A stretch of DNA of 50,450 nucleotides, taken from NCBI GenBank assembly GCA_949291575.1, contig CASEWH010000079.1, forward strand, positions 1-50,450, given 5' to 3'. A program made the translations under genes and the position numbers. A model generated the notes under the pieces. It saw nothing but the letters and a program-made list of their open reading frames with translations. It was not told the DNA's origin and searched no databases. Shown here in pieces: positions 696 through 27,181 of the stretch. Source of the stretch: an uncultured bacterium. GTDB taxonomy: Bacteria > Bacillota_I > Bacilli_A > RF39 > UBA660. Each line of letters opens with the position of its first letter. Positions within the stretch are counted from its first letter, which is position 1.

Positions 696-2921
696 TTATT
701 CATCAAAGAAATCATCAAAGAAGTCATCATCATCGTCATCATCTAAACTCAAATTAACTTCCTTTTTCGGATGTTCAACTTTTGGCATTTCACTAACTTC
801 TGGTATAGGACTATTAACAACTTCTTTAACTGGAGAAACATCCTTAACAGGTTTAGGTTCCACAGCTTTCATAGCATCTAACTTCTGTTGTTGTTTCTGC
901 TTATTCATTGCCTCTTCTTTCTCAAGTTCTGCAATCTTAGCATCTATCTTCTTAACAAGCTCATCCACATCAAATGAAGGTTTCTTAGGTCCTGCATTAC
1001 TTTCCATATTAGGATTCATAAAAGGAGGCATTGGATTATTATTAATAGGATTATTTAGTCTAGGCATTCCAGTAGGATTAGGCATACCTTCACCCATAGG
1101 ATTATTATTAGCCCCTGCTCCTATACCAAACAAATTAGGAGGTACAAATCCAGGTGGAGTACTTCCCCCTTCTCCATTTGGATTAGAACTATTCATCATC
1201 TCTAACAATTTTTCTTTTTTCTTCTCTTTAACAAATGTCTTTATATCAAAAGTATGAACTGCAAGTTTTTCTCTTTCAGGATATGCTGCCTTAGGATAAG
1301 TCTTACCCCAATCAAGTTTAAAATCAGGCGTAAACTTAGTCTTAAATGGTTGCATTCTCATTCTTAGAATAATAACTTCGAACGTTTTCATTCTCTGTAA
1401 ATCAGATACTGTAACAAGAGGAGTTGAAGCAGTCTTATCATCTGACTTAGACTTAACTTCACCACACATCTTAGATATTTCTTCAAGTGCTGCAAGCTCT
1501 GCAGAAATTAAGTAAATAATATTACCACAGTTACCTCTAATAGTCTCAGCATTCTCTTTACCATAAACTTGATTTAACTGTGCATAGTTCTGAATAATCA
1601 TTGTAAATCTAATATGCCTTGAACGAGCAGCCGTAATCATAGTAGTAACATCTTTAAGTGGTGGCATATTTGCAAACTCATCAAGTAAGAAATTAGTTCT
1701 AACAGGAAGTTCTCCACCATTTTCCTGTGCAACACCGATTAATGTTTCATAACACTGTTTTAAAAGTATTGTAACAAGTGAATGATATGTTTTCTTTTCA
1801 TCTTGTACAACTATAAATAAAGCAGTTTTACGTCTTCCAATATCAGCAAGTTCTATATCACTATGACTAAGCATTTCTGATAAATTCTCACGAGATGCAA
1901 ATAACTTAATCTTTTGTCTAAATACTGACAAGATTGATCCTTTTGTATCTGTAGGAGCATTAATAGTACTAGAAGCATTAATTACAGATGCACTAGCAGG
2001 ATCTTTAAATGAAAAGTATTCTTTAATATAAGTAGAACCACCAAACTTCTCTTCTCCTACCGTAGTCATTAAACTAATACTATTAATATTTATCTCTTCT
2101 TCTTTAGCATCTTCAAAAAGACCTAAAGCAACACCAGAAAAGTAATCAGCTGAAGTCTTTTCCCAGAACGGATCACTATTATTACTAGATTCATCATATA
2201 AAATATTTAAAGCAAGGTCATCTAGTAACTCAATCGCTTTATCTTGATTGCCACTTTTATACATTCTATAAGGAAGTGATAATGGATTCCAACTACTACC
2301 ATTTTGTGGATCACGAAAGTTAAGAATTTGTACATCATAACCTTTATCTCTTAACATATTAGCAGTCGCTTCATAAATCTCACCCTTAGGGTCAGTAATA
2401 ATCATAGATTCCCCTGCTTTAGCAAGTAATTGAACTGTAGGTTTAATAACAGTCTGAGTTTTACCTGAACCAGTAGAACCAATAACTAAAGTATGATATT
2501 CTCCATTATCAACCCAAGCTTCTTTATCATTTAAAATTAAAGGAACACCTGCTGCATTACTATACTCTTGCCCTGGAGTAACCATAACAATATCTTTTTC
2601 AGCTTTCATTTCTTTATCTTTAGCCCATCTAGAATAACCTTTATCTTTTTTCTCACTAGTAAAACCAATACCCTTTTCCATTTCAAAGAAGTATGATTTA
2701 ACACTAACAAGCATCCCAATTAAAGCTACAAAATAGATGATTAAAGTAATCCATAAAAACCTAGGTGCAAAAGCAGGAAATGGATTAAGTCCACTAAAAT
2801 ATCCTTCAGTAGCAAAAGAATGTAAATTAACAACACCTATCGCTACTATATAAAGTAAAAAGATAGCAAAGACTATAAAAATCATTACATCGTCTTTATC
2901 AGCTCTAAACTTCAACTTCAT
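696..2921 (-). CDS. Type IV coupling protein (VirD4/TraG family ATPase)
   Basis: N-terminal TM helices, Walker A GSTGSGKTQT, and LLDEFANMPP (the TraG/VirD4 Walker B region). ATG at 2921 has RBS GAGGTGG 5 nt upstream; the track start 2930 is a GTG inside that RBS. The C-terminal ~200 aa are Pro/Asn/Gly-rich, then a coiled K/E stretch, ending in DDDDDDDFFDDFFDE. Confidence 0.9.
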   Translation of the reverse strand: MKLKFRADKDDVMIFIVFAIFLLYIVAIGVVNLHSFATEGYFSGLNPFPAFAPRFLWITLIIYFVALIGMLVSVKSYFFEMEKGIGFTSEKKDKGYSRWAKDKEMKAEKDIVMVTPGQEYSNAAGVPLILNDKEAWVDNGEYHTLVIGSTGSGKTQTVIKPTVQLLAKAGESMIITDPKGEIYEATANMLRDKGYDVQILNFRDPQNGSSWNPLSLPYRMYKSGNQDKAIELLDDLALNILYDESSNNSDPFWEKTSADYFSGVALGLFEDAKEEEININSISLMTTVGEEKFGGSTYIKEYFSFKDPASASVINASSTINAPTDTKGSILSVFRQKIKLFASRENLSEMLSHSDIELADIGRRKTALFIVVQDEKKTYHSLVTILLKQCYETLIGVAQENGGELPVRTNFLLDEFANMPPLKDVTTMITAARSRHIRFTMIIQNYAQLNQVYGKENAETIRGNCGNIIYLISAELAALEEISKMCGEVKSKSDDKTASTPLVTVSDLQRMKTFEVIILRMRMQPFKTKFTPDFKLDWGKTYPKAAYPEREKLAVHTFDIKTFVKEKKKEKLLEMMNSSNPNGEGGSTPPGFVPPNLFGIGAGANNNPMGEGMPNPTGMPRLNNPINNNPMPPFMNPNMESNAGPKKPSFDVDELVKKIDAKIAELEKEEAMNKQKQQQKLDAMKAVEPKPVKDVSPVKEVVNSPIPEVSEMPKVEHPKKEVNLSLDDDDDDDFFDDFFDE

Positions 2922-3001
2922 AATATCCACCTCTGTTCAATCTCAATTAAAATCTACGCTTATTATACCAGTATTTTACTAATTTGAAAACAAAAATTTA
3001 A

Positions 3002-3700
3002 TTATATTTTATTATTCTTTCTATTTCTAATAAGCAATAAAACTAAAATAATAAGTACTATTCCTATTACAACACCTATAGTAATTACTGTACTAACATT
3101 TACTATACCTAAAACTCTATCTCCACTTTTACTAGTATCTATTACTATATCAATACTCTTCTTACTATCTTTATTAAAAACCCAAGTATAAGTATTACCA
3201 TTAACACTATCAGCATTATTCTCTTCTACTAAATAATCTGTTTTTATATTAACTGTTACTTCTTCTAAAAGAGGAAAATCATTAAAATATATTAATCCTT
3301 CATTATCAGTTAATAAGGAAATAATATCATTTCTATAAGAATAACTATAATCTCTAAAACCATCTTTAATAGTTCTAGCATCCCCATATTTATCTATATC
3401 AAAATCATAACTATAATTAAATCTATAACCATTTCCTAAATCAGTAGTATTCTTATTATAATATAAAACATCAGAAAAAGGCTGATCAGGAACTGTATCT
3501 ACTATTAAATCAGAAGCATATATAGGAATATAATCTCTAAATGATGTTCTTAAAATCTCTTTAGTATAAATAGCATTCTCTAAAACTGTGATATCATTAC
3601 TCTCTTTTATTTTATTATCACTAATATCAAGATTAACTTCTACACTACATCCACTAACCATAAATATTAGTAGTATTAAAGTCAAAATTTTCTTTTTCAT
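3002..3700 (-). CDS. T4SS-associated lipoprotein with an additional C-terminal membrane anchor (paralogue A)
   Basis: Lipobox LIFMVSGC-S, an extracytoplasmic domain of ~190 aa, then a TM helix plus basic tail (LLLIRNRKNNKI). Paralogous to 5079-5756 (shared ENNAD-VNGNTYTW block and overall architecture). Confidence 0.6.
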   Translation of the reverse strand: MKKKILTLILLIFMVSGCSVEVNLDISDNKIKESNDITVLENAIYTKEILRTSFRDYIPIYASDLIVDTVPDQPFSDVLYYNKNTTDLGNGYRFNYSYDFDIDKYGDARTIKDGFRDYSYSYRNDIISLLTDNEGLIYFNDFPLLEEVTVNIKTDYLVEENNADSVNGNTYTWVFNKDSKKSIDIVIDTSKSGDRVLGIVNVSTVITIGVVIGIVLIILVLLLIRNRKNNKI

Positions 3701-3703
3701 AGT

Positions 3704-5053
3704 CTATCCTCCATAGAAACCACTCATATCAATTCCATAATAACCAGAAGCATCAAAAGATTTTCTAGAAAACAACACTCCTGTTTCATTACCAGCCGCT
3801 TCTGCACAGATATAACCATTATCATCAACACCAACAACTAAAATAATATGTCCACTTGTCGCTAGCAAATCACCAGCTTGCAAAACTGCACTACTACTTA
3901 ATGATACCCTCTCAGCCCCTTCTAAATATACAAAAGTAGCAGATGATTGAACAGGAATAGAAAATCCCCCATTATTAATAGCCCAAGTAACAAAACCAGA
4001 ACAGTCGAGTCCACAATAAGTATAAGCTTGTCCATTAGCAGCAGTATAGCAGGTGTTACTTCCCCAACTAGCTTCCGCACCTACAGAAATACTTCCATGA
4101 CCTCCAGTCCAAAAATAAGGAACTTTAACATTATAGTTATTACCAAGTTCTGCAATTAAAGTAACAGCAGCCGCTACAACACCTGCTCTTGTTCCAGAAC
4201 CTGCTTCTTGTACATTACTTACTATTAAATTATTGAATTCTTCTAAACTAGTACCTTTACTTTCTAAAAAAGTATCTAAAGGCTCATGCAATATTTCATG
4301 TCCATCACTAGATAATGAATAATCACCATAATCAATATCACCACTACCCCCACTAGAAGCTTCTGCCGTATCAAGCCCCCAAAAGCCACTAAAGAAACCT
4401 ATAACTGTAATAGGAATTAAAAAAATAAACAGAAAAGATATGATAAATCCAAAAAGTCCTATCATAAATTTAGTAGACAAAGGAATCCTACCAAATAATT
4501 TAAATTTAGAAGAAAATTTATTATTAGAACCAAAGATAGAACGTAAAGGATTTAAAGATCTAGATTCACTTTCTTCATTAGAAACAACACTATCATCACT
4601 AGTACTATCATCATTACTAGTTACACCACTAGTAATACTATCACTTCTACTATTATCTTCTCTATTATTACTAACAATACCACCAGTAGTAGTAGGATTA
4701 GTATTTCTTCTAGCCATAACATTTTTTCTAATATTATTAAGATTATTTAAAGTACCAAGAACAGGAACACTAGATAAAGCTCTATTAGCAATCTGTCTTT
4801 TAGCATTATTAACTATATTAGAACCCATACTACGTTTAGGAATATTGACATTACTAGAAGTACCAGAACTACTAACATTATCATTATTACCTGTTTTTTT
4901 TCTACTCTTATATTTATTAAAATCAACTATGTTATCTTTTTTATTATTAGCAACATTTCTAAGAGGTGTACTAGAAGAAGCATGAGTATTATTATTAGAT
5001 TGACCACCTACTTCATTATTATTATCTTCTAAGTTTTCTACTTCTTCTGGCAT
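3704..5053 (-). CDS. Membrane-anchored NlpC/P60 family cell-wall endopeptidase with a Ser/Asn-rich N-terminal region
   Basis: C-terminal NlpC/P60 motifs (GLDCSGFVTWAI catalytic Cys, SGHIILVVG His), a central hydrophobic segment (FMIGLFGFIISFLFIFLIPITVIGFF), and ~180 aa of low-complexity S/N-rich N-terminus. Confidence 0.8.
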   Translation of the reverse strand: MPEEVENLEDNNNEVGGQSNNNTHASSSTPLRNVANNKKDNIVDFNKYKSRKKTGNNDNVSSSGTSSNVNIPKRSMGSNIVNNAKRQIANRALSSVPVLGTLNNLNNIRKNVMARRNTNPTTTGGIVSNNREDNSRSDSITSGVTSNDDSTSDDSVVSNEESESRSLNPLRSIFGSNNKFSSKFKLFGRIPLSTKFMIGLFGFIISFLFIFLIPITVIGFFSGFWGLDTAEASSGGSGDIDYGDYSLSSDGHEILHEPLDTFLESKGTSLEEFNNLIVSNVQEAGSGTRAGVVAAAVTLIAELGNNYNVKVPYFWTGGHGSISVGAEASWGSNTCYTAANGQAYTYCGLDCSGFVTWAINNGGFSIPVQSSATFVYLEGAERVSLSSSAVLQAGDLLATSGHIILVVGVDDNGYICAEAAGNETGVLFSRKSFDASGYYGIDMSGFYGG

Positions 5054-5078: not shown

Positions 5079-5756
5079 CTAAGTTATTTTATTATTTTTC
5101 TTACGTCTTCTAAGTGCCTTAAAATATATCAAAATTCCAATTATTACAACAATTATAAGAATAACTATAATAGAAATAACCTGTGAAGTAAAAGATTCCT
5201 GATATCTTTCTTTCTCTATTTTTATATAAATAGGTTTATTAGTATAATTTTTATCATTTATATACCAAGTATAAGTATTACCATTAACTTTATCTGCATT
5301 ATTTTCTAAAACTGTTAAAGCAGTCCTAATATTAACAGTAATACTGTCAATTTCTCTATCGCCATCTTTATAAAGACACGCTACTTGATTATCAGTATTA
5401 ATAGTAATAACATCATCAGTAACATTAACAATACGCTTATAATAACATCTACTAGCAGCTTCTGATTTATATAAATCATTTCCAGTATATTGATAACTAT
5501 AATTTAAAATTATATTATCATCAGTCTCTCTCTTAGTAAAGTCATAATATTCGTTTTCTCTTGTATCATAATTATAAAATGCAGTTCTTCTAATACCTTC
5601 CATTCTATTAGCAAGTTCACTTTCCGTAGCTTTATCAAAAATAGCATTAATATCTTCTTCCATAGTAGAGTTCTTAATAGTCAAATTATATTCAGCACTA
5701 CAACCGGATAACAGAAACATACAACAAATTAAACAAAATATTTTAAATTTTCTCAT
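5079..5756 (-). CDS. T4SS-associated lipoprotein with an additional C-terminal membrane anchor (paralogue B)
   Basis: Lipobox MFLLSGC-S and a C-terminal TM helix plus basic tail (KALRRRKKNNKIT). Paralogue of 3002-3700. Confidence 0.6.
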   Translation of the reverse strand: MRKFKIFCLICCMFLLSGCSAEYNLTIKNSTMEEDINAIFDKATESELANRMEGIRRTAFYNYDTRENEYYDFTKRETDDNIILNYSYQYTGNDLYKSEAASRCYYKRIVNVTDDVITINTDNQVACLYKDGDREIDSITVNIRTALTVLENNADKVNGNTYTWYINDKNYTNKPIYIKIEKERYQESFTSQVISIIVILIIVVIIGILIYFKALRRRKKNNKIT

Positions 5757-5765: not shown

Positions 5766-7397
5766 CTATCCCTCAAGTGGAAAAATATATCCACTAAAGT
5801 CATAACTACCACTATAATATGGACCAAAGCTATTATAAAACTCATCAAGAGTCATAGTCTTCATATTAAAGTTAATACAACTCCAATCATTAGGACAACT
5901 ATTAGTATTAGTAGCCCATCCTTCAGTAATAGTAACACTATCATCAGTCACTTCTTCAATAAAAGCAACATGACCATAACCACCACTTTTAGTCCACGAA
6001 ATAATAGCACCAGCTTGTAAATCATTTATATTAGTACTAGTTCTAAAAGTACCAGAACTTCTTTCAACCCATACACCTGCATCTCCATATATAGAGAATA
6101 ATTTGTCTCCAATACTAGCTGCTTGTTCATCTGTAATAGTTCCCTTACTAGCAAGTTCTAAAGCAACTTCATAAGCACGAGCTTGAGCATACCAAACACA
6201 CTGTCCTCTATTACTACTCTTTCTTGTAAAAGCAGCATCAGAAGAACTTGGAGCAATTGTTCTAATAGTCCACTGTCCTTCCCCAGTATAACAAAGATCT
6301 GAACTAACATTAACAGGAACATCCCATTTATCTAAATCATACATTTCAATAGTATTAATAATAGTACTAGAATAATTAGGATCTGTTGCATATCCAGCAT
6401 TATGTATCGCTCTAATCTGTTCCTGATAAGTAGTAGCATCGAATACCCCTGCATTAGGATACCTAGGATTTTCTTTTAAAAACAAGGAATGATCATTAAC
6501 AGAATCTTCTATGCTATTATATTTTCTAAAATTAGAATCAGTTGTATAATAACCGCTGCTTCCATATTCACCTGTCTCCATGTTTATACATTCTCCATCC
6601 CAATTAGAACTACACTTAATACCAAACATATTATTCGCTTGTTGTGTCAAACCAGACTTACCCCAACCACTTTCTATTATAGACTGAGCAAGAGTAACAG
6701 AAGCAAAAACATCATTTCTACTAAAATCAGCTTGAGCAATAGGACCCATTGTGGCAATATATTCATCAGTACTCATATCAAGAAAGATAGAAGCTTGTGT
6801 ATTACCAGTAGAAAGACACCCATCCCCCATATTATCTTCTTTTTCTGCCCCAATAAACTCTAAATAATCATTTACATAATCATAAACATCTTGAGCCATC
6901 CTAGTACATGTAACATCCTCCAAACTAGAATCAACACTCTTAAAATAACTAGCAAGACTCTCTTTAACAGCTTCTTCACCTTTAGCAGTATAAGTATAAG
7001 TACCATCTTCATGTTCCACTTCATCAAGCATTAAATCTGCAACTTCTCTCATCCTAGCTTCTGACATATCATCATATGTAAAACCTTCTATATTAGTTTG
7101 CATAATAGTAAAAGTAGAAGTAATAATTAACTCTGAAAACTCTTTTTCTTCAGCATCATATTCATCACGCACTTCATCTAATCTCTCATAGTAAGCATCA
7201 GAACCTTGACTAAAAGCAACAAGTTGAGTAGAATCTTTACTTCTATCTATTCCAAAAAAGCATGTTAAACCTACAAGAAAAATCGAAAAAACAACACCTA
7301 TAACAGTAAGTGTACCCTGCCAAGAAGATAATAACTTAAAAGAAGATAGAAATAATGCTATCTTTCTACTTCTTTTATTATTTCTATCTCCTTTCAT
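5766..7397 (-). CDS. Bifunctional peptidoglycan hydrolase: GH73 N-acetylglucosaminidase domain + CHAP amidase/endopeptidase domain (VirB1-type role)
   Basis: TM anchor; GH73 motifs AQSIIESGWGKS, NMFGIK, GYATDPNY; CHAP motifs RGQCVWYAQARA and GYGHVAFIEEV. The likely start is ATG 7397 (RBS GGAAAGG). The track start 7439 would overlap the VirB4 end. Confidence 0.85.
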   Translation of the reverse strand: MKGDRNNKRSRKIALFLSSFKLLSSWQGTLTVIGVVFSIFLVGLTCFFGIDRSKDSTQLVAFSQGSDAYYERLDEVRDEYDAEEKEFSELIITSTFTIMQTNIEGFTYDDMSEARMREVADLMLDEVEHEDGTYTYTAKGEEAVKESLASYFKSVDSSLEDVTCTRMAQDVYDYVNDYLEFIGAEKEDNMGDGCLSTGNTQASIFLDMSTDEYIATMGPIAQADFSRNDVFASVTLAQSIIESGWGKSGLTQQANNMFGIKCSSNWDGECINMETGEYGSSGYYTTDSNFRKYNSIEDSVNDHSLFLKENPRYPNAGVFDATTYQEQIRAIHNAGYATDPNYSSTIINTIEMYDLDKWDVPVNVSSDLCYTGEGQWTIRTIAPSSSDAAFTRKSSNRGQCVWYAQARAYEVALELASKGTITDEQAASIGDKLFSIYGDAGVWVERSSGTFRTSTNINDLQAGAIISWTKSGGYGHVAFIEEVTDDSVTITEGWATNTNSCPNDWSCINFNMKTMTLDEFYNSFGPYYSGSYDFSGYIFPLEG

Positions 7398-7416
7398 ATA
7401 ACCACTACCTTTCCTA

Positions 7417-16015: not shown

Positions 16016-16023
16016 CCTCTTTT

Positions 16024-18916: not shown

Positions 18917-19738
18917 TTATTGCTGTGTATATGATAAATCTTCTTCAGTCATAGCAGTAACGTTATTAATAAAGTTTCTTAAATCCTCACTAGATAATGT
19001 TACATCACCTGGCTCATCTTCTAAAGACTCTGCAGTAGGTACAGGAATAATTTCAGATTCATAAGCTCTTAAATATCCAGCTTTACGAAGTAATATATGA
19101 TATTCTTCTGGTACAGCAAAGATAATCTGTGCAGGTGCGGTTTTCTCATCAAGATTAGCAAAAACATTATTACCATTACTATCAAATACAGCAAGAACTT
19201 TAACATTAGATAGTAATTTACCAACCATAATTCTATCATCAGCAACAGAACCATCTGCCCCTTGAGCATTTTGAACTTTTAAGTATATGTCTATATAATT
19301 ACCAGGATAAATTGAATTACTATAAGTACTAGCCATATCAACATCTAAGTTATATAAGACATAGCCCTTAGGATAATCTAAAATTATACTATCAGGCAAT
19401 TGATCACGAGATACAACACATCTTTTATAGAAAAGACTTCCTTCAGGTATAACACTATCCCCATTAGCATACATATCAATAACATCTGCACTATTTGTAA
19501 TAATCTCATCAGTTACCATAGACTGAGGAATTTCCATAGTACTAATCATATCTTCAGTAATTTGTGTCCTAGCTTTAATTGTTTCTGTAGCATAAGGAAC
19601 AGTAACAGGTGTAATAGCTTGATTAATTCTCATATTATAACCAGCATAAAGAACAACTATAGCAAGAATAACTCCCACAACTGTAACTGTATTCTTATTA
19701 GTAAAGAATTTTTTTATTCCAATAACTAAATTATTCAT
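18917..19738 (-). CDS. CpaB/RcpC-like pilus assembly protein (SAF domain)
   Basis: N-terminal TM, a SAF-like segment (VTVPYATETIKARTQITEDMIS ... DSVIPEGSLFYKRCVV), then a beta-rich domain. It sits immediately upstream of the ATPase, as in cpa/tad loci. Confidence 0.6.
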   Translation of the reverse strand: MNNLVIGIKKFFTNKNTVTVVGVILAIVVLYAGYNMRINQAITPVTVPYATETIKARTQITEDMISTMEIPQSMVTDEIITNSADVIDMYANGDSVIPEGSLFYKRCVVSRDQLPDSIILDYPKGYVLYNLDVDMASTYSNSIYPGNYIDIYLKVQNAQGADGSVADDRIMVGKLLSNVKVLAVFDSNGNNVFANLDEKTAPAQIIFAVPEEYHILLRKAGYLRAYESEIIPVPTAESLEDEPGDVTLSSEDLRNFINNVTAMTEEDLSYTQQ

Positions 19739-19763: not shown

Positions 19764-20222
19764 CTATTCAACATCACTATAATCTAACTCACCTGCTCTA
19801 GTCATATCTGTTACTAATTTATTTTCATAATAATTAGATTCCAAAATAACATCAACTTTATTTGTTAAGTCTAAAGCTTCTCCATTAACACTAGCAGCAG
19901 TTTCTGATTTAACAAAAATACTAACTTTAGGTGGTGTTTCATTTATATCATAAAATCCAATATCATAAGTTCTATTATTAGATACATTTTGAGCAAAACG
20001 TCTAATAAAACTCTCAACAAATTTCTCTTTATCAATTCTAAGTAGACCGCTTAAGCGGTAATAACCAACGTCTACTGCATCAGTCATTGCCGCTTCAGCT
20101 GTTTCTCTAAGTAAATAATAATCAAGTTCATTACCAGTTTGATAATTTTGAACTATATTAACAACACCAAAAGTAATAATAGCCAAAAGTATAATTCCAA
20201 CAACTAACATTGCTTTACTCAT
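19764..20222 (-). CDS. Membrane-anchored small protein, possible pseudopilin (TadF/TadG-like position)
   Basis: 152 aa with the N-terminal hydrophobic helix MSKAMLVVGIILLAIITFGVVNIV, then a soluble domain. Size and architecture match 15313-15771. No canonical prepilin cleavage motif. Confidence 0.4.
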   Translation of the reverse strand: MSKAMLVVGIILLAIITFGVVNIVQNYQTGNELDYYLLRETAEAAMTDAVDVGYYRLSGLLRIDKEKFVESFIRRFAQNVSNNRTYDIGFYDINETPPKVSIFVKSETAASVNGEALDLTNKVDVILESNYYENKLVTDMTRAGELDYSDVE

Positions 20223-20223: not shown

Positions 20224-23025
20224 CTACCTAGCTCCTTTCAAGATAGCACTTTGTGCCATATATTCATTATAACAAGCGGTAGAAGTATCAATAGTATTAA
20301 CACAAGTACCATTATCTTCATTATTACATCCGATTACACCACTCTTTAATAATTCACTACTATTAAGAACTCTATGAAGTAGATAACTACGATAAACTGT
20401 AATACCACTTGTTTTATCATTACCTGCAGTTAATACTTCACTACTATCAGTACCAGTAGGTTGAGCATAACTATCATATTTATCATTATAGTTTCTAACT
20501 TTATTCATAGTTTCAGGAGTTAATCTAATATGATAATCTAAATATTCATCACCTTCATAAATACTATCACCTAAAGCTTGAATATTATTTAATGTTGTAA
20601 CTGGTTGAACTAAATAATCAGGATTTTCCAAATTAGTTGCAGCACAAGTCCAGTTAAATCCAATTTCTCTAGTATTATCAGCAACCTGTACAGCATCATT
20701 TCCTCTTAAACTCTCTACTTCATTTATTAAAAGAGAAGCATTTGTATTCTTATCATCTGCACTAGTAGGAGTAACAGAATTAGGGAATAAATTATCTAAA
20801 GCTACTGTCCTAAACTTATAATTAGTAGTAGGACTTTCACCTTCTTCTATCTCACTATCATCTATAGGAATATCAAAACCACCATCTGGATTATCTGGAT
20901 CATCAGGATCACTACCAGGAATAGTAGCAGGATCTCTATATAGTGCATAGAAACATTCTACATCAAAGTTCCATCCGAAGTAACCATAATTATCTATAGA
21001 ACCTCTAATATTCATATCAATAGAATCATTAATCTCTTTCTTCTCACTATCAGTTAAAGCATTAGGATCACCATCTTGATTAACTTTCCAGTTATACCAA
21101 GCAGTATTAACAGGAACTGAATTAAATTTAGTACAATATTCATTTCCAGCATAAGTATAGAAATCTTCATATCCAGGTTGAATTGAATGAACAGTTTGAC
21201 CTGTCTTATTATTAATCCATACACCAGGGAATGTTATAATATTATGATAATTCCAAGGATCATCCTCTCCATCTTCACAATCACCATCAGTAAGTATTAC
21301 CATATCAGGGAAATCCCCAGTTACATTAGTACTATTTAATTTTTGCTCAGAATTAAACTCTTCTTGCCAATCACTCTTATCAGTATCATTTTTACTATCA
21401 TTACCATCTAAATTATCAACAACGATTTGGTATTTAGTAGTTTCATTGTTACATGTAGCAGCACTACTTTCACAAGCATTTTTCTCCTTTAAATACTCTT
21501 CATATTCTTTATTATATTCCTCTTGAGCTTGCCATTGAGTTAAAACTGTATTAGTAGGATCACAATCCCATTGCCATTCGCATTCATCATTACATAAGGT
21601 ATTATCATAGTAAATTTCTTTTAATATTCCGTTATCATCAGCACGATAATAACCAGAATCACCATATGTTAAATCACCCTTATACATACTTATTGTTTTC
21701 TCTGTAGCTTCTACACTTCTGTAATAATAAGGACCTAAAGTACTACTACAAGGAGATTGCTTAATCCAATTATTACCATCATAATAACCACCAGGATATT
21801 GTTGTCTAAACTCATATAATTCCATAGCAGTAATTTCACCATCAGCTGCTTGATCCAAACTCTTACATTGAGAAGCCATCTTAGTAGCATCTAAGAAATT
21901 ATCACTTTCTCTATATAAAGGACTCATTGCAATAACTTCATCATGAGTTAAATTACTTTCACTAGTCTTTTTAGTACTACCTTTACCTTCATATACTTTA
22001 CTATAACACTTATCTATACATTTTTGAGTATATTTACCACCATCACAGTCTGATACACACATATCAAAGTCCTCATTAGGACCACCAGCATCATATGACT
22101 TGTTACCAGATTTACAAACAGGTGTAGGATAACATACTGATTTCATTGTAGGTTTTTTTCCTTGATATTGAGACTCACAAACTGTCTTAGATTTTATTTC
22201 TATCAAATATTGAAAACACATTCCTGCCTGAGTTGCCACTGGATCACTAAAATTAACCTCAACTTTCTCAGTACAAGTAACTTTACAATTATTAGAAGTA
22301 CTAGTATCAGTATGATAATACTTATGCATTGTATCATAATTATTGTTACTAAATGCATCACAAGTTAATGTATCAATATTAGTAACATCATCTACATATT
22401 GATAACCAGTAGTATCCATAGTTTCACCTGATGAACCACTAGATGAATTTATTAAATCTCTAAATTTTATAGCAGTAGCAATCCAACTTTCAAGTTGACC
22501 TCTTGTAAAACTACCATAAGTTTGTGTTTGAAAACATTGAGGAACAGCATTTCTCATCATCTCATCATTACCATAATTATTACGATAATTAACACAAAGA
22601 CTATCGTTATACAATGTATTAGTTGTTAAAGCACTCTCATTAAGTGATATTTTACCTACTTCTGTACCATTTGGAGCCATACACCCATGAGCAATCATAT
22701 CCATATTTTCACGTAAGGAAAATCTAACTACACCACCAGTAAAGACTTCTAATCTAATAGTTTGTCCTGGATAAAAATCCCCATTTGGTCGTGACCCAAC
22801 ACTATATTGATAAAGAAGTGGAACACTAGAATTATTAGTAAGTACAGCATAATTACCATCATAAGAAACATCTATTTTATCTATAATATTTCTAACATAG
22901 TACTCAGCAGAACAAGTATTATTATTAGCAGCCTCTACATTATCCATATTAGCTAACATAATTCCACTAATACTAGCAATTGCCACAAGTGGGACAAAAA
23001 GTAATCTAGACTTCTTTACTCTCAT
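20224..23025 (-). CDS. Large secreted cysteine-rich protein (adhesin / pilus-associated candidate)
   Basis: ATG 23025 follows RBS GAAGGTG. The signal peptide is RVKKSRLLFVPLVAIASISGIMLANMDNVEA. About 930 aa, 29 Cys by manual count, acidic Pro/Asp-rich linker (PGSDPDDPDNPDGG), no C-terminal sorting signal, no family recognised. Confidence 0.5.
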   Translation of the reverse strand: MRVKKSRLLFVPLVAIASISGIMLANMDNVEAANNNTCSAEYYVRNIIDKIDVSYDGNYAVLTNNSSVPLLYQYSVGSRPNGDFYPGQTIRLEVFTGGVVRFSLRENMDMIAHGCMAPNGTEVGKISLNESALTTNTLYNDSLCVNYRNNYGNDEMMRNAVPQCFQTQTYGSFTRGQLESWIATAIKFRDLINSSSGSSGETMDTTGYQYVDDVTNIDTLTCDAFSNNNYDTMHKYYHTDTSTSNNCKVTCTEKVEVNFSDPVATQAGMCFQYLIEIKSKTVCESQYQGKKPTMKSVCYPTPVCKSGNKSYDAGGPNEDFDMCVSDCDGGKYTQKCIDKCYSKVYEGKGSTKKTSESNLTHDEVIAMSPLYRESDNFLDATKMASQCKSLDQAADGEITAMELYEFRQQYPGGYYDGNNWIKQSPCSSTLGPYYYRSVEATEKTISMYKGDLTYGDSGYYRADDNGILKEIYYDNTLCNDECEWQWDCDPTNTVLTQWQAQEEYNKEYEEYLKEKNACESSAATCNNETTKYQIVVDNLDGNDSKNDTDKSDWQEEFNSEQKLNSTNVTGDFPDMVILTDGDCEDGEDDPWNYHNIITFPGVWINNKTGQTVHSIQPGYEDFYTYAGNEYCTKFNSVPVNTAWYNWKVNQDGDPNALTDSEKKEINDSIDMNIRGSIDNYGYFGWNFDVECFYALYRDPATIPGSDPDDPDNPDGGFDIPIDDSEIEEGESPTTNYKFRTVALDNLFPNSVTPTSADDKNTNASLLINEVESLRGNDAVQVADNTREIGFNWTCAATNLENPDYLVQPVTTLNNIQALGDSIYEGDEYLDYHIRLTPETMNKVRNYNDKYDSYAQPTGTDSSEVLTAGNDKTSGITVYRSYLLHRVLNSSELLKSGVIGCNNEDNGTCVNTIDTSTACYNEYMAQSAILKGAR

Positions 23026-23794
23026 TATTTTCACCTTCTTTCATTCTCTCTTCAATAACATTATAATTTTTATTTGTTTCAACCGTTGCATATTTCATAT
23101 CTTCACCCTCTCTTAATTTTCTAGCATCAACTCTAAATGAGTAACTAGTAGTTCCATAAAATCTTGTACATGTATAAAGTGTCAACAAATCATCATCTTT
23201 ATTAACATCAACATCAATATCAAACATACTCTCTTTTTTAGCTTTCTTTATAAATTCTTCTTGTTCTTCCTCTGTATAAGTATCATAGTAAGAAGAATAT
23301 TGACCTTCATCAACTAAAGATACACCAAACACTCTATATATAGAAGTCTCATTATCTTCATTAGTTATTGCAATGAATTGATTTTCTTTAACAAAATCTT
23401 CATATATAAAGTTCATAAGTTGTTCAAAATATGTCATTGTATCATCATCAGTTATCGGATTACTAGAAACATTTCTTATATTATGAGAAATAAATGTAAG
23501 ATGATTACTCTTATCATCAGGATAAGAATTAGTCCAAGCAAATTCATAATCTCTTCTTGATATATCCATAACATTATTTCTCTCTACTAAAGCCATATCT
23601 ATATTTGTTCCTTCAACTCTAATCCAACCAATAACATCATCTCCAAACTCCTTAGCTTCTTCTATATTTGAACTCTCATCTTTAATGGCAAAATTACTAG
23701 TATTACCACCATCTTTATACAAGAGTACAAGACATATAATTATAAGTATTATAACTATTATTAAAGCTAGATAAACCTTTCTTTTTTCCTTCAT
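23006..23794 (-). CDS. Class B-type sortase
   Basis: N-terminal TM; GWIRVEGTNIDMALV (the class B N-terminal signature); His in LTFISHNIR; catalytic TLYTC; Arg in SFRVDARKL. Confidence 0.8.
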   Translation of the reverse strand: MKEKRKVYLALIIVIILIIICLVLLYKDGGNTSNFAIKDESSNIEEAKEFGDDVIGWIRVEGTNIDMALVERNNVMDISRRDYEFAWTNSYPDDKSNHLTFISHNIRNVSSNPITDDDTMTYFEQLMNFIYEDFVKENQFIAITNEDNETSIYRVFGVSLVDEGQYSSYYDTYTEEEQEEFIKKAKKESMFDIDVDVNKDDDLLTLYTCTRFYGTTSYSFRVDARKLREGEDMKYATVETNKNYNVIEERMKEGENNESKEV

Positions 23795-23811: not shown

Positions 23812-25629
23812 CTAATCATCTATTCTATAAGGACTAGACTCAGTACCATCTCCATTAGTAATATATACATCTTTATTTAAATAAGCTTTAACTTTAACAC
23901 CAGCAGTTATACCTTCATAAACATTCGAATAAGTAACAGTACCCAAAGATCTAACTACAGTTTTAACCTCTTCATTTTTAGAAGAATCTATTAACCAGTA
24001 ACCACCATCTTTTGATAAGGCCCCTTTAGCACTAAATATATCAAATGTAGAAGGTATACTAATTAATAAGTTATATGTTTTCTCATCATGTTTACCTTTA
24101 TAAGTTACTTTATTATTATAAATAGGAACAGTTATCTTTTTACTAGTAAATAAACTTGTATCTATATAACTAGTCATATTATTCTTTATTTGATAACCAA
24201 TATTACCTTCTTGATTAGGATTATAAACTTTAGTTTTTTGAGTATTTTGGTATCCTATAGTTATTTCATTATTATCATTCTTTAAAACAGATGTCATAAT
24301 AACTTCAGTAGTACCATCATCCATAATATCACTTATTCTAAATAGATAACCAGAATAACTAATAAATTCACCACTCTCTCTTTCATTAATTAAACTATTT
24401 TTTCTACCACTTTTATCATTTAAAAGTATATAAGGATCAGTATAACTACCATCACCCTCTAACACTGTTGTACTAGCTTTAAGTGTAACAGCAGGTACTA
24501 CATTTAATAGGTTATTACCATCACTTGTACTAAAACCATTAGGATAAATAGCATTACCAGTCATAGCCCAAGGTTTATTTTCTTCATTAAAATTAGCATA
24601 CCAACTTAAATTATCTTTATTTAAATAACTACTTCTGCCATCATAACTTCTATTATAGTCTTGAATTGATAAAATTCCAACTTTTCTTTTAGAAGTTTCC
24701 CTACTACATTCAGTAGTATTAAGATTATCAGAAGTTATAACATCATTACACCAAGTACTATTCTTGATAAGTTCCTGATATCTAGGTTCTAATAATCCAT
24801 AAAAGTAATCATTAAGCCAAGAATCTAAAGCACTATCTTCAAATTTACCATTAGTACTATAATCAACATTAGCAAGAGCATCATTACTAACAATAACAAC
24901 AGAATTATCATCATTAACTCTAACTATTCTAAATAACATATGATTAAACATTACATAATTATCGCTATCATTACCAACATAATAACCATTTTCTGTATTA
25001 TCATTAACAATCCTAGAAAGTCTCTCTTCTACTTTAACAGTTCTAGTAACCTCACTTTTATTATTTAAACTATCAGTAGCACTATAAGTAATCTCATAAG
25101 TACCAACAACTGAAGTATCAACTTTACCTTTTACACTAACTTTAGATACATCCATCTTTCCATCTGTATCATCTGTAACACTCTTAACCCCAGGATCAGT
25201 ATACTCTTCTCCTCTGCTAACAGTTACATCTGTATCACCATTTAATTCAATAACAGGACCTTCATGGTCAACATCAGATTCATACTTACCACATTTTAAA
25301 TAGGTATAATACCTATAATCCCCATCTTTTTTTACCGCTTTAACATTAGATTCCCTCAAATCACAAAGTTCATTACTATAAGGAATATAAAGCCCTTCTA
25401 AGTAATCTTGTTTTATTAAAGTATCTAAACTAACAGAAATAACTCTTCCTTCTTCTTTAGGCAAATATGAGTCATTAATCTCATAATAACGAATCCCTGC
25501 TGCATTAAAAGCTTTTTCATTATCATTAAAAACTTTTCTAGGATATAAAAATATAAACCAAATAAGAAGAATTATAATTACTACAACCAAAACCACACCT
25601 ACTATTTTAATAATTTTTTGTTTAGTCAT
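23812..25629 (-). CDS. Membrane-anchored surface protein with a bacterial Ig-like (DUF5011-type) domain
   Basis: N-terminal TM anchor and an Ig-like segment (GPVIELNGDTDVTVSRGEEYTDPGVKSVTDDTDG...GTYEITYSATDSLNNKSEVTRTVKV). Two further beta-rich modules end in GDGSYTDPY and GDGTESSPY. Confidence 0.55.
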   Translation of the reverse strand: MTKQKIIKIVGVVLVVVIIILLIWFIFLYPRKVFNDNEKAFNAAGIRYYEINDSYLPKEEGRVISVSLDTLIKQDYLEGLYIPYSNELCDLRESNVKAVKKDGDYRYYTYLKCGKYESDVDHEGPVIELNGDTDVTVSRGEEYTDPGVKSVTDDTDGKMDVSKVSVKGKVDTSVVGTYEITYSATDSLNNKSEVTRTVKVEERLSRIVNDNTENGYYVGNDSDNYVMFNHMLFRIVRVNDDNSVVIVSNDALANVDYSTNGKFEDSALDSWLNDYFYGLLEPRYQELIKNSTWCNDVITSDNLNTTECSRETSKRKVGILSIQDYNRSYDGRSSYLNKDNLSWYANFNEENKPWAMTGNAIYPNGFSTSDGNNLLNVVPAVTLKASTTVLEGDGSYTDPYILLNDKSGRKNSLINERESGEFISYSGYLFRISDIMDDGTTEVIMTSVLKNDNNEITIGYQNTQKTKVYNPNQEGNIGYQIKNNMTSYIDTSLFTSKKITVPIYNNKVTYKGKHDEKTYNLLISIPSTFDIFSAKGALSKDGGYWLIDSSKNEEVKTVVRSLGTVTYSNVYEGITAGVKVKAYLNKDVYITNGDGTESSPYRIDD

Positions 25630-25639
25630 AATATCCTCC

Positions 25640-27181
25640 TCAAATTAAATGATAGACATAACGTTTAGCTCTAAAAGTAAATATTAAATCAATATTGCTA
25701 TCAGAGCTTATATCACTAGGAATACTAAAATATGCATAATTACCATTATAATCATTAATAAGTGATGTCGCTTCCACTCTCTTGACTTTCCCATTATCAT
25801 CCTCATATCTAATTTTAGCATATATTGAAGAAAAGTCAACAAAACTTTGCCCTGTAAAGTTATTACTTACAAAAGAAAGTGTTAAAATCTTATTCTTACT
25901 AAGACTAAATGTTTCTGTTCTAATACCACAGCCATAACTATCACAACCGTATTTATTATAAGATGTCTCACTACCAAGAGTAGCATTAGTAACAGTAAGA
26001 GTATTATTATTTAATAGAGTCATCTTTTCATTTAAATTAGCAGTAGCAACTGTCTTAACATCTCGTACATCTTGAACATTTAATTTAGTTTTCTTAAGAA
26101 GTAAATTACTAGCAAGATCATGATAATATAAAACGTATTTACTAGGATCTAATGAAGCATCTACTTTATAAACTAAGATAAAGGTAACTTCATCTCCAGT
26201 ATCAAGTTTTTTCTCAGTATTATAACTACTACCTAAATCTTTAAAATTATCATAAAGTCTTCCTACATATTTAAATTGTTCACTTTTATTCATAACTCTA
26301 AATCTATCTATATTAATATTCCTTCTACTAGCATTATTTTTTACTGTTAAATTTAATACTAAGTATGCTGTATTATCATTAGAAACAATAGAAAAACCTT
26401 TACTATCTCTAGTAGTTAAATAACTACTATTAACAGTTATATCATAGTAATTAGCAGAAAAAGTATTTCCTTCCCTATAAGTTCTATGTAATATTCCAAA
26501 GTAATAATAAGTATAACCAGTAACAGAAGCAAAGAGAATTATTATGATAGTATTACAAATAAGTCGATGCTCTAAATAAACATATTTTACATTTCTAATA
26601 AACTTCTTAAAAGTTCTAGTTATCTTATCTTTATCAAATTCTATATTAACTTCAAATTCTTCTCTATCTTCTTCTTTTATATCTAAGTATTCTTCATCAT
26701 CTTTAAAGCCAAATTTCTTAAGGTCAATACCTAATAATCTAATTCCAAAGATTATAAAGACTATATATTGAGGCAAATATACCAAGTTTAATAAGTCTCT
26801 ACCTGCCATTATAGGTGTAATAGTAGAAAACTCATCATAACTATTAAAATAACTTCTAATAAACAATAAAATACCAAACATAAAAGCATACTCAAATACA
26901 GGAATTAAATATATCTTCCATGGTTTCTTTTTATAATGTAAAAGAACAATCAAAATTATACTTATAATAACTACTAGAAGTATGGAAATAAGTACAAAAA
27001 AGTTAATATGATCACTAATTGGCTCATAATAAGCATTATAACTTTCTGTATTTAAAAAATCAGCGACAAAACTTCTCAAAGCTATTACTTTATAGAAAAT
27101 ATAAGCACAAAGTAATATAAGTACTAAATGTATTCTCTGAAAGTACTGTATTAAAAGAGCATATGGTTTTCTAAGTATCAT
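25640..27181 (-). CDS. Polytopic membrane protein with extracytoplasmic beta-rich modules; first gene of the long operon
   Basis: About five hydrophobic helices in the first 230 aa, then two beta-rich repeats with a DUF4352-like pattern (LVLNLTVKNNASRRNINIDRFRV...). Function unknown. Confidence 0.45.
   Translation of the reverse strand: MILRKPYALLIQYFQRIHLVLILLCAYIFYKVIALRSFVADFLNTESYNAYYEPISDHINFFVLISILLVVIISIILIVLLHYKKKPWKIYLIPVFEYAFMFGILLFIRSYFNSYDEFSTITPIMAGRDLLNLVYLPQYIVFIIFGIRLLGIDLKKFGFKDDEEYLDIKEEDREEFEVNIEFDKDKITRTFKKFIRNVKYVYLEHRLICNTIIIILFASVTGYTYYYFGILHRTYREGNTFSANYYDITVNSSYLTTRDSKGFSIVSNDNTAYLVLNLTVKNNASRRNINIDRFRVMNKSEQFKYVGRLYDNFKDLGSSYNTEKKLDTGDEVTFILVYKVDASLDPSKYVLYYHDLASNLLLKKTKLNVQDVRDVKTVATANLNEKMTLLNNNTLTVTNATLGSETSYNKYGCDSYGCGIRTETFSLSKNKILTLSFVSNNFTGQSFVDFSSIYAKIRYEDDNGKVKRVEATSLINDYNGNYAYFSIPSDISSDSNIDLIFTFRAKRYVYHLI

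Follow-up and report, generated by a model that had tools for sequence, protein, structure and literature searches.

How should a gene train be understood that carries both a type IV secretion system (T4SS) and relatives of Tad pilus genes: as a mobile element, as two neighbouring machines or as one apparatus? The question is raised by a locus of an uncultured bacterium (GTDB lineage Bacilli_A; RF39; UBA660) at positions 27181 to 696, on the minus strand, of contig CASEWH010000079.1 (assembly GCA_949291575.1), whose 50,450 nucleotides (nt) are the window analysed here. A first-pass annotation had proposed a composite apparatus, in which a complete Tad/Flp-like module serves a T4SS in a layout that it did not know from any characterised system. 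The composite is supported by the conserved adjacency of a Tad-like module, a T4SS, a sortase and surface proteins, whereas the completeness of the Tad module and the novelty of the layout did not survive the analysis. The reading that we favour, with moderate confidence, is that of a vertically inherited, chromosomal, envelope-spanning apparatus composed of two adjacent modules, a relative of the conjugation operons of the plasmids pLS20, pXO2 and pZB18 that has been exapted as a contact or transfer organelle. The host lineage comprises uncultured gut Bacilli with a genome of ~1.5 Mb (Candidatus Onthousia and relatives).

Organization of the gene train

The train consists of 24 open reading frames (ORFs) that all point in the same direction, with zero strand switches; every gene of the train described below is therefore on the minus strand. 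In the 5' to 3' direction the junctions measure 10, 17, -29, 1, 25, 16, 16, 2, 69, 21, 12 and 54 nt, followed by 58, 46, 125, 29, -38, -4, -23, 9, 25, 3 and 71 nt. After correction of the start of the first VirB2-like gene to ATG 14265, 17 of the 23 junctions are overlapping or at most 30 nt long, in agreement with the co-directional train of ~26.5 kb that had been described before. It is, however, not one simple operon, because conserved promoter-like elements are found 5' of the Flp-like gene and at the junction of the Tad-like and T4SS genes.

For comparison, we scanned one genome per GTDB species for VirD4, which gave at least 565 confirmed matches, and fetched the best 80 loci (63-96% identical); compared loci carry the prefix L. 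Nearly all of them belong to gut metagenome-assembled genomes (MAGs) labelled as uncultured Bacilli, Tenericutes, Mycoplasmatota or Candidatus Onthousia. The sources are chicken, human, rabbit, mouse and rumen, and one of the MAGs is a circular chromosome of 1.52 Mb.

A monoderm T4SS in the downstream half

The region from 14.3 to 0.7 kb is a monoderm (MPF_FATA-like) T4SS that contains VirB4, a VirD4 of the CD1115 family, VirB6 and a wall hydrolase, and Pfam and NCBIfam models confirmed the earlier assignments of VirD4, a split VirB4, a VirB6-like protein and hydrolases of the GH73 plus CHAP and NlpC/P60 types. The VirD4 coupling protein (696-2930) was recognized by the CD1115-family model (NCBIfam NF045973, 3.3e-90, 303 bits against a cut-off of 250) and by Pfam T4SS-DNA_transf (8e-58), and it has a long C-terminal tail that is Pro/Asn-rich and acidic. 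VirB4 is encoded by two ORFs, one for the ATPase domain (7417-9207, 596 residues; NCBIfam Mbov_0397 VirB4 2e-103, CD1110 family 1e-49; Pfam AAA_10 and P-loop_TraG) and a separate one for the N-terminal domain (9204-9770, 188 residues), which matches positions 92-276 of the Mbov_0397 model (1.9e-14) and, in relatives, Pfam TraC-like. Owing to the split, the Mbov_0397 and CD1110 scores stay under the equivalog cut-offs. Since the split is retained in every relative examined and the ratio of nonsynonymous to synonymous substitution rates (dN/dS) of the VirB4 ATPase is 0.03-0.13, we consider the split a genuine gene arrangement and not decay. Pseudogenisation of VirB4 was ruled out by the conserved split together with dN/dS values of 0.03-0.18. 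The adjoining VirB3-like protein (9733-10053), a small protein with two transmembrane segments, was assigned by position, size and topology with zero profile matches, and its 106 residues together with the 188 and 596 residues of the two VirB4 pieces approximate the 894 residues of the Mbov_0397 VirB4 model.

The VirB6-like polytopic channel protein (10083-12128; Pfam TrbL_4 2.4e-9, 37.4 bits against a cut-off of 27) has a long hydrophilic C-terminal part and is linked to the pLS20_p028-family VirB6 of a Paraclostridium plasmid by hhalign (90%). It is preceded by three VirB2-like genes. The first encodes a small two-helix hairpin protein of the T4SS_pilin type (13903-14265, two transmembrane segments). 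The second encodes a small hairpin protein that is 56% identical to the first and has a weak match to the NCBIfam conjugal-transfer model MMCAP2_0566 (13485-13844; 0.0018), and the third a secreted, Cys-containing protein of 394 residues (12254-13438) with a signal peptide and a C-terminal transmembrane pair, whose last 100 residues align with the small paralogues as a VirB2-like hairpin. Pfam PF18895 (T4SS_pilin) was matched by 15 of 18 diverse members of the VirB2-like family, with a best value of 1.3e-6; the window copy at 13903-14265 alone gave no PF18895 match. A comparison of the family with the TrbC/VirB2 proteins of pXO2 and pZB18 gave no link (hhalign 0.2%), and PDB sequences gave spurious matches only. 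All paralogues have one conserved Cys just before helix 1 and another just after helix 2, in the contexts ...C[RG]G... and W..CW in the small type and ...C.G...LLG and TCGLK in the large type. This arrangement suggests that both Cys are extracellular and that a disulfide may staple the N- and C-termini together. The cyclised T-pilin and TrbC of RP4 offer a parallel to such stapled termini.

Conservation within the T4SS half is lowest for the genes that lie between VirB4 and VirD4. A membrane-anchored peptidoglycan hydrolase with GH73 glucosaminidase and CHAP domains (5766-7439; Pfam 3e-36 and 1e-13) follows VirB4, and in relatives (L001 20368-, L004 20121-, L087 17754-) this slot is swapped between GH73 plus CHAP, Peptidase_M23 and SpoIID. 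Between two lipoprotein genes lies that of an NlpC/P60 hydrolase (3704-5053), which scored 25.8 bits with Pfam NLPC_P60 (cut-off 23) and has a single transmembrane segment and an N-terminus of low complexity. The lipoprotein at 5079-5756 has the lipobox SGC, a C-terminal transmembrane segment and a basic tail. The one at 3002-3700 is its paralogue (hhalign 100%, E 6e-77), and the two genes have an 84-nt DNA repeat in common. No locus protein matched the models for VirB8, PrgL or TcpC; it is solely their position, together with a weak TrsH match (0.014), that makes the two lipoproteins VirB8-like candidates.

Tad-like components in the upstream half

The secretion ATPase (17716-18900; Pfam T2SSE 4e-28) has an intact Walker A motif, Walker B-like motif and His box, and several comparisons place it in the CpaF/TadA-FlaI branch. 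Among PDB sequences it matched FlaI (8e-19) and CpaF (2e-17) ahead of VirB11 (4e-13), and in tblastn against plasmids the ATPases of Gram-positive plasmids (1e-31 to 2e-45) were followed by CpaF (1e-15 to 1e-22) and then VirB11 (1e-10 to 1e-14). The NCBIfam result was ambiguous, with VirB11 TIGR02788 at 1.3e-31 and TadA-conjugal at 5e-31, both under their cut-offs. Judged from these matches, the ATPase of the locus belongs to the TadA/CpaF clade that Tad systems use. Directly 5' of it lies the gene of a CpaB/RcpC-like protein (18917-19738), a further component expected of a Tad system; its matches to TIGR03177 (1.6e-9) and Pfam RcpC (3e-6) were each just under the cut-off, and hhalign linked it to the CpaB/SAF proteins of Bacillaceae (99.4%, E 1e-21) and to proteobacterial CpaB (75%).

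The two polytopic proteins 3' of the ATPase were compared by hhalign with Tad loci on replicons of Rhizobium, Azospirillum and Ralstonia, with Firmicute Tad-like loci and with the operons of pLS20, pXO2, pZB18 and the Paraclostridium plasmid. The TadB-like platform protein (16806-17699) would be a remote member of the T2SS-F family. Its family was linked at 99.1% (E 4e-19) with a platform protein of Bacillaceae, at 97.8% with the pLS20 gene-38 family and at 90.9% (E 1e-6) with proteobacterial TadB; PGAP names one of the Bacillaceae proteins as type II secretion system F family. The Bacillaceae loci are in turn connected to proteobacterial TadB at 96.2%, which provides an indirect chain in addition to the direct match. 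The second, TadC-like platform protein (16024-16803) is a less well supported candidate. It matched the second platform protein of Bacillaceae (96.5%, E 1e-9) and the pLS20 gene-39 family (76%), and no direct link to proteobacterial TadC was found (0.2%). Three unrelated membrane-protein controls gave at most 1% with both platform families. The earlier TadB- and TadC-like assignments thus have support from profile-profile comparison only and not from a Pfam T2SSF or NCBIfam profile match.

Other assignments in this half did not hold. The 152-residue protein at 19764-20222, which has an N-terminal membrane anchor and had been called pseudopilin-like, is a member of the DUF5411 family (Pfam 2.6e-50). 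A DUF5411 gene is also located directly 5' of CpaB in the Priestia locus L095, in L102 and in L104, so that DUF5411 can be regarded, from this gene order, as a marker of the Firmicute Tad-like cassette. Another 152-residue protein with an N-terminal membrane anchor (15313-15771) had been called TadE-like; it had zero Pfam and NCBIfam matches, the TadE model included, and gave 0.1% in hhalign against five proteobacterial TadE/TadG-family proteins, as compared with 39% against the pLS20 gene-40 family. The pilin that the first-pass annotation had noticed as unannotated and Flp-like is a real, conserved ORF of 53 residues (15793-15954), which gene callers annotate in other assemblies. It encodes one transmembrane helix and a variable tail and starts MKEATGELNMTV, with a short N-terminus (MKEATGE) that has a Glu at position 7; the G/XXXXEY motif that would make it an Flp pilin was not found. 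An N-terminus of the form MK[ED]xxxE is common to the 53-residue protein and small proteins of related cassettes, and the resemblance to the MKEILQEYGG of L104 is suggestive only.

The last gene of this half encodes a cytoplasmic protein of 326 residues (14320-15300) that had been taken for TadZ/CpaE and that showed no similarity to TadZ, CpaE, MinD or ParA by any method tried. Searches with the single sequence and with a profile gave no Pfam, NCBIfam or PDB match beyond spurious PDB ones. The family gave at most 1% in hhalign against CpaE, the TadZ-like ATPases of Bacillaceae, pLS20 p47 and E. coli MinD (0.1% for MinD), and its P-loop-like stretch (AGSTT) is without a lysine. This orphan protein is nevertheless among the most conserved of the locus: its dN/dS is 0.03-0.09 against close relatives, and it matches its homologue in the distant locus L098 at 2e-88, although the TadB-like protein of L098 is only 27% identical. 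Taken together, four components of the locus agree with those of Tad systems and four others do not. The module is not the complete one that had been claimed, as the TadZ and TadE assignments fail, the Flp motif is missing and 696-27700 contains no prepilin peptidase gene.

Surface proteins, sortase and oxidoreductase

The train opens with a polytopic membrane protein of 513 residues (25640-27181) that has five to six hydrophobic segments, an extracellular beta-rich domain and a weak DUF4352 match; its position is conserved. The following three genes were described correctly before as encoding an immunoglobulin (Ig)-domain surface protein, a class-B-type sortase and a Cys-rich secreted protein, as judged from Pfam, TIGR03064 and the Cys count. 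The surface protein (23812-25629, 605 residues) is anchored at its N-terminus, contains Ig-like and DUF6273 domains (Pfam Bact_surface_Ig-like 2e-20, DUF6273 8e-7), has no C-terminal sorting signal and evolves fast (dN/dS 0.44-0.59). The class-B-like sortase (23006-23794) has the catalytic motif TLYTC, with Pfam Sortase at 29.9 bits against a cut-off of 26.6 and TIGR03064 at 4.5e-15, under the cut-off. No LPXTG- or NPQTN-type sorting signal was present in any locus protein, so that no sortase substrate was found. The secreted protein of 936 residues (20224-23034) has a signal peptide, 29 Cys and zero Pfam or NCBIfam matches, and it is 35-59% identical between genomes in which VirB4 is 89-98% identical.

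Divergent from the train, on the plus strand, lies a gene for a thioredoxin-fold lipoprotein that resembles the PedC/BrcD thiol-disulfide oxidoreductases (27287-27700; Pfam Thioredoxin 6e-9, NCBIfam PedC_BrcD 6e-10). A PedC-like gene occupies the same divergent position in L001-L006 and in the distant L098 (8717-9118), and its presence in this distant variant suggests that the lipoprotein is a functional part of the system. Plausibly, given its predicted fold, it acts as an accessory factor or oxidase for the exported proteins that bear Cys, namely the VirB2-like proteins and the giant protein with 29 Cys.

Homologous genes in plasmid conjugation operons

The first-pass annotation knew of no characterised system with this layout. 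We found that a homologous ATPase and platform pair stand beside VirD4 and VirB6 on pLS20, pXO2, pZB18 and a Paraclostridium plasmid, and the gene order belongs to the already described family of pLS20-type operons. The best ATPase matches among 72,556 plasmids were on a plasmid of Paraclostridium bifermentans, Enterococcus pZB18, Bacillus subtilis pLS20 and Bacillus anthracis pXO2, and the pLS20 record names the ATPase gene tadA. The conjugation operon of pLS20 spans genes 34-54. On these plasmids an adhesin gene is followed by small membrane proteins, the ATPase, two polytopic proteins (~270 and ~240 residues), a 120-residue protein with an N-terminal transmembrane segment, a 47-residue transmembrane protein, a TrbC/VirB2 family protein or a 76-residue hairpin, a CD1115-family VirD4 and a pLS20_p028-family VirB6. 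VirB3-like, VirB4 and hydrolase genes come after VirB6 on the Paraclostridium plasmid and, according to the literature, on pLS20.

The window locus has in common with this family the CpaF/VirB11-type ATPase (33-36% identity, 1e-34 to 1e-40), two polytopic proteins homologous to the TadB/TadC-like pair (97.8% and 76% in hhalign), small single-transmembrane proteins, a two-transmembrane VirB2-type hairpin and a large adhesin gene at the 5' end. It also shares a CD1115-family VirD4 (annotated on pLS20, pZB18 and the Paraclostridium plasmid), a VirB6 of the pLS20_p028/TrbL type, VirB4 and wall hydrolases. Positional counterparts of the VirB4 N-terminal piece, the VirB3-like protein and the lipoproteins on the Paraclostridium plasmid gave no hhalign link, and no homologue of the 326-residue orphan protein was detected by hhalign on plasmids of the pLS20 family. 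In contrast to the self-transmissible plasmids with their relaxase and relaxosome genes, the window locus is chromosomal and no relaxase was found nearby. VirD4 precedes VirB6 on the plasmids whereas it is the last gene in the window, and the window adds a CpaB-like protein, DUF5411, a sortase, the Cys-rich giant, the PedC-like oxidoreductase and three VirB2-like paralogues.

In the literature, gene 37 of the pLS20 family is described as a putative VirB11 and genes 38-47 as unknown, and Gram-positive elements are stated to form no conjugative pili (PMC8557374). The ATPase of pAW63, a plasmid that is placed in the pLS20 family by literature only, is also termed VirB11 (PMC9673590, PMC8557374), a review of the B. 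cereus group names only VirB11, VirB4 and VirD4 (PMC9673590), and a review from 2025 holds that VirB11 and pili are universally lacking in Gram-positive T4SSs (PMC12857230). Recognition of the Tad-like nature of the pLS20-type ATPase and platform genes was not found in the literature searched, nor was a description of the locus in the literature on RFN20-, RF39- or Onthousia-type Bacilli and T4SSs.

Cassettes that stand alone provide the strongest profile matches (TadB-like 99.1%, TadC-like 96.5%, CpaB-like 99.4%; ATPase 2e-45). They occur on a Priestia koreensis plasmid (NZ_CP061869, L095), on Bacillus mycoides p539 (L097) and in the metagenomic L104, with the order (Ig-like surface protein), DUF5411, CpaB/SAF, ATPase, platform 1, platform 2 and small proteins. 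Unlike the window, they have no T4SS genes nearby, and those of Priestia and B. mycoides contain an extra gene between CpaB and the ATPase. This gene is annotated as a ParA-type AAA ATPase (TadZ-like) in B. mycoides and as hypothetical in Priestia. The large protein that ends the stand-alone cassette of L104 (6932-9511) carries Pfam PXO2_28_C, a domain named after a protein of the pXO2 transfer region, and this domain appears to be a further link between the cassettes and the plasmid T4SS operons.

More distant systems resemble the locus in part. The proteobacterial Tad/Flp loci (Aggregatibacter tad, Caulobacter cpa) likewise have a CpaF-type ATPase, paired single-domain platform proteins of ~260-300 residues, a CpaB/RcpC-like protein and a very small pilin-like gene under a promoter of its own. 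The window locus differs from them in having no TadZ/CpaE, no TadV/CpaA, no Flp G/XXXXEY motif and no detectable TadE/F, and the likeness is at the profile-profile level only. A secretin is not expected in a monoderm. A combination of a conjugation-type T4SS with a contact-promoting type IV filament machine is also known from the IncI1 R64 thin pilus and PAPI-1; these are diderm systems of the MPF_I or MPF_G type with a type IVb pilus (PilQ/PilR/PilS/PilV) in separate clusters, and the resemblance is best seen as analogy, not homology. The chromosomal T4SS of Patescibacteria (Southlakia epibionticum) is another monoderm T4SS of MPF_FATA descent. It is fixed in an uncultured lineage with reduced genomes, usually lacks a relaxase and has arrays of divergent PF18895/VirB2-like pilins and variable surface parts (PMC12102498, PMC12857230). 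Its essentiality and the epibiotic lifestyle have been demonstrated there (PMC12102498, PMC12857230). The phylum is a different one, however, and the likeness is conceptual; a CpaF/TadB/TadC module is not reported from Patescibacteria, where type IV pili are encoded separately.

Two modules that recur together

Two promoter-like elements, both on the minus strand, subdivide the train. One (15988-16016; GTTACA-17-TGnTATAAT) lies 5' of the pilin-like gene and is conserved in the window, L001, L004 and L087. The other (14288-14316; TTGACA-17-TATTAT) lies in the 54-nt gap between the halves, was the best match of the scan with 11 of 12 positions, and precedes the ribosome-binding site GGAGGA and the start codon (ATG, 14265) of the first VirB2-like gene. 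The -35 hexamer and ribosome-binding site at 14.3 kb do not vary among eight genomes whose silent sites are otherwise saturated. As the overall counts of the promoter and terminator scans were at background level, the argument uses only these two sites conserved across genomes.

The halves adjoin in many genomes, including those in which VirD4 is only 64-74% identical. The junction between the 326-residue gene and the VirB2-like genes is kept in every locus whose flank reaches it unambiguously, save four exceptions (L061, L074, L077 and L080), in which the T4SS half occurs without the Tad-like half and unrelated genes lie 5' of the VirB2-like genes. The adjacency recurs in the distant L098 (9209-14539), where CpaB-, TadB- and TadC-like genes and a homologue of the 326-residue gene are followed directly by the VirB6-like gene. 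The variant of L098, also present in L099 and L100, is chromosomal and adjoins rplM-rpsI; the ATPase, pilin-like and VirB2-like genes are not in between.

From the conserved internal promoters and the four T4SS-only genomes it follows that the halves are separable modules. A boundary at ~14.3 kb is thus seen in part, in the promoter, the four genomes and the stand-alone cassettes, with adjacency otherwise conserved. We conclude that the two modules are of separate origin and recurrently together, and that they are probably cooperating.

Chromosomal setting and selection

Both borders of the locus are followed by ordinary chromosomal genes. On the right, the divergent lipoprotein gene is followed by a bidirectional terminator (27699-27729) and then typA, tsf and rpsB, and the rest of the window is housekeeping, with rplT, a class II tRNA synthetase, dgkA/PAP2, recO, era and yqfD. 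On the left, VirD4 is followed by a terminator-like hairpin with a run of seven T (599-632, minus strand), which was read directly from the sequence and had been missed by the consensus scan, and then by a VapD gene. This VapD family gene (140-472, minus strand; NCBIfam 4e-27) adjoins the VirD4 terminator, and beyond it a small ORF runs off the window end. The G+C content is ~29% across the window with no compositional step at the locus borders, and searches for tRNAs and direct repeats found no tRNA and no direct or att repeat there; the sole match of an Rfam scan of the window was a tRNA-Gly at its far end. Megablast of the train against the 72,556 plasmids gave zero DNA-level matches. A prophage or phage-plasmid origin was ruled out, as there are no phage genes.

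The first-pass annotation had suspected DNA-processing genes just left of position 1. The window VirD4 itself gave no exact match among recorded sequences, and the flanks of its relatives were used in its place. To view the corresponding flanks in the 80 loci, genes within 10 kb past VirD4 were clustered and cluster representatives were scanned, and housekeeping genes were found instead, in blocks of pncA/pncB/nadE, of rhodanese/DedA/RmuC/trpS and of SepF/DivIVA/the small alarmone synthetase RelQ. Rhodanese, DedA and RmuC occur in 36-41 of the 80 loci and trpS in 29, synteny blocks are common to up to 45 of them, and one of the two sides of the locus is bordered by typA. No relaxase was detected in the train, its near flanks and the ten largest right-hand genes of the window (the smaller ones there being unscanned), nor among the scanned representatives of the commonest gene clusters past VirD4 in the 80 genomes. 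The earlier statement that the window contains no relaxase or integrase therefore agrees with our result for the scanned genes. The only integrases within 10 kb are three tandem tyrosine-recombinase genes in L035 (16711-19925), a closed MAG; they lie ~4.5 kb past VirD4, beyond pncA, pncB and nadE, are arranged like a recombinase-in-trio element and are absent from the other genomes. Thus, the regions searched contain neither a linked relaxase and oriT nor an integrase with att sites, a replicon or a variable location as in a conjugative element, and a mobile element is probably not what the locus represents.

Two other genes were seen directly 3' of VirD4 in relatives, neither of which follows VirD4 in the window. 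In 45 genomes (for example L037, 12417-13613) it is a membrane-anchored, Cys-containing protein of ~400 residues with no Pfam match, and weak tblastn matches of the window Ig-like/DUF6273 protein elsewhere in these loci may be to that protein. In five genomes (for example L024, 12171-13940) it is a HerA-like ATPase.

Selection differs between the parts of the apparatus. In most comparisons the core proteins, namely VirB4, VirD4, the ATPase, both platform proteins (TadB/C-like) and the 326-residue orphan protein, have dN/dS values of 0.03-0.17. For most of the surface-exposed proteins, which are the VirB6-like, VirB2-like and pilin-like proteins, the Cys-rich giant and the Ig-like protein, the values are 0.3-0.67. 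Surface proteins fall to 35-59% identity where VirB4 is 89-98% identical. This is the pattern of a maintained, vertically inherited apparatus with diversifying exposed parts, and not of a decaying or hopping element.

Interpretation of the locus

Gene identities, synteny, chromosomal context, purifying selection and homology to the plasmid operons are the observations on which the favoured reading is built; from these we infer that the modules are probably coupled in function, that a fibre is probably formed and that the apparatus is probably exapted. Because neither relaxase nor integrase nor att site was found and the setting is a housekeeping one in hundreds of species, an exapted organelle is likelier than a mobile element. 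In this reading, module 1 (27.2-14.3 kb) is a Firmicute Tad-like cassette of the DUF5411 type behind surface proteins, a sortase and the divergent oxidoreductase, and the MPF_FATA-like T4SS of the monoderm type, under a conserved promoter of its own, forms module 2 (14.3-0.7 kb). In such an apparatus the wall hydrolases would open the peptidoglycan, while the CpaF-like ATPase, the TadB/C-like platform and the CpaB-like protein would polymerise one or more small subunits into a short fibre or piston. The fibre and the fast-evolving surface proteins may contact a partner cell or cross the thick wall. VirB4, VirB3, VirB6 and the VirB2-like proteins would form the membrane channel, and VirD4, through its long low-complexity, acidic tail, would select and feed the substrate, either protein or DNA.

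Several points weigh against this interpretation. The hallmarks TadZ/CpaE, prepilin peptidase and Flp motif are absent at the locus: the 53-residue protein has no G/XXXXEY motif, and no protein of 696-27700 matched the Peptidase_A24 or NCBIfam prepilin peptidase models. The homology of the TadB- and TadC-like proteins comes only from profile-profile comparison with small alignments. Pfam, T2SSF included, and NCBIfam gave no match for either protein. The TadB-like protein, the sole platform protein searched against PDB, gave no relevant match there either, and the outcome was equally negative for 23 family members down to 20% identity. AlphaFold2 models, computed from shallow alignments (the best 120 homologues, 75-99% identical), were unusable, with a mean confidence (pLDDT) of 47.5 for the TadB-like protein and 39.9 for the 326-residue protein. 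The halves have separate conserved promoters, and the T4SS half stands without the Tad-like half in four genomes. Finally, all compared genomes are MAGs, and the view on relaxases is limited to 10 kb beyond VirD4 per genome.

These points bear on the alternatives in different ways. If there were no Tad relationship at all, the ATPase would be the VirB11 of a Gram-positive T4SS and its neighbours T4SS-specific membrane components, as might be thought from the top NCBIfam match (VirB11 TIGR02788), from the T2SSF, TadZ, TadE and Flp models that all remained unmatched, and from the naming of the ATPase in the pLS20 and pAW63 papers (PMC8557374, PMC9673590). Yet FlaI and CpaF outrank VirB11 among solved structures, CpaF likewise exceeds VirB11 among plasmids (1e-15 to 1e-22 against 1e-10 to 1e-14), a CpaB-like gene with links to both Bacillaceae (99.4%) and proteobacterial CpaB (75%) precedes the ATPase, and the TadB-like family is connected to TadB directly (90.9%) as well as through Bacillaceae (99.1%, then 96.2%), with controls at or below 1%. 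We regard this explanation as very improbable, the least probable of those considered. The halves might instead work independently, with a Tad-like pilus and its adhesins serving adhesion side by side with a separate T4SS, in keeping with the promoters at 16.0 and 14.3 kb, the cassettes L095, L097 and L104 that occur alone and the unrelated genes that precede the T4SS half in four genomes. Against independence, adjacency persists at 64-74% VirD4 identity and in L098, where platform genes abut VirB6, and the Cys-pair VirB2-like proteins, which belong to the T4SS half, are probably served by the PedC-like oxidoreductase as well. In the pLS20 family, moreover, the ATPase and platform genes are part of the one conjugation operon, where they come after the adhesin gene and before virD4 (PMC8557374). 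Independent function is therefore unlikely in our view.

The apparatus could still move DNA, as the mating-pair-formation region of an integrative and conjugative element or in conjugative chromosome transfer of the Mycoplasma or Mycobacterium style, with relaxase, oriT and recombinase elsewhere. It includes the coupling protein VirD4, whose acidic C-terminal tail is of the type that binds relaxosome proteins in F-type systems, its best VirB4 model is Mbov_0397, which represents a Mycoplasma ICE family, L035 carries three tyrosine-recombinase genes ~4.5 kb further downstream, and all characterised close relatives are the conjugative plasmids pLS20, pXO2/pAW63 and pZB18 (PMC8557374). In the 80 genomes, however, the 10 kb downstream hold no relaxase and no integrase save the L035 trio, which stands beyond pncA, pncB and nadE and is not found in other genomes. 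Housekeeping genes flank both sides, searches of the borders found no att repeat, tRNA or compositional break, and VirD4 has at least 565 matches in species-representative genomes, with synteny blocks in up to 45 of the 80 fetched loci. We give DNA transfer of this kind a small chance.

A more far-reaching version of the favoured reading draws on the analogy with Patescibacteria. The locus may be the partner-interaction organelle of obligately dependent (epibiotic, parasitic or syntrophic) genome-reduced gut Bacilli, in which a motor-driven fibre of leaderless Flp-like subunits, of disulfide-stapled VirB2-like pilins or of both would pass through the thick wall, and VirD4 would feed protein or nucleic acid. 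This extension is speculative and, on balance, doubtful; if it were true, it would follow that pLS20-type Gram-positive conjugation systems form a filament too, which is at odds with the present view.

Independently of this extension, the locus contradicts, in a testable manner, textbook statements on Gram-positive T4SSs. The CpaF-type ATPase, TadB/TadC-like platform, pilin-like subunits and VirB2-type proteins that pLS20, pXO2, pZB18 and the locus carry lead to a testable fibre or piston hypothesis, and pLS20, being genetically tractable, is suited to testing it. A chromosomal T4SS with no relaxase nearby in hundreds of species also suggests a contact-dependent lifestyle for an abundant, little-known gut group.

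Other genes of the window

A few genes outside the locus are recorded here. The ribosomal proteins S2 and L20 (30933-31892 and 31991-32599) both have a C-terminal extension with a SAP/Rho_N-like domain, which is unusual in bacterial ribosomal proteins. A protein with a KilA-N domain is encoded at 41469-42359. A bacteriocin-type ABC exporter with a C39 peptidase domain (47602-49695) is adjoined by several small ORFs (46218-47123), and together they are possibly a bacteriocin and immunity cluster. The homologue of YqfD, a stage IV sporulation protein, at 45047-46225 suggests that sporulation genes are retained in this small-genome lineage.

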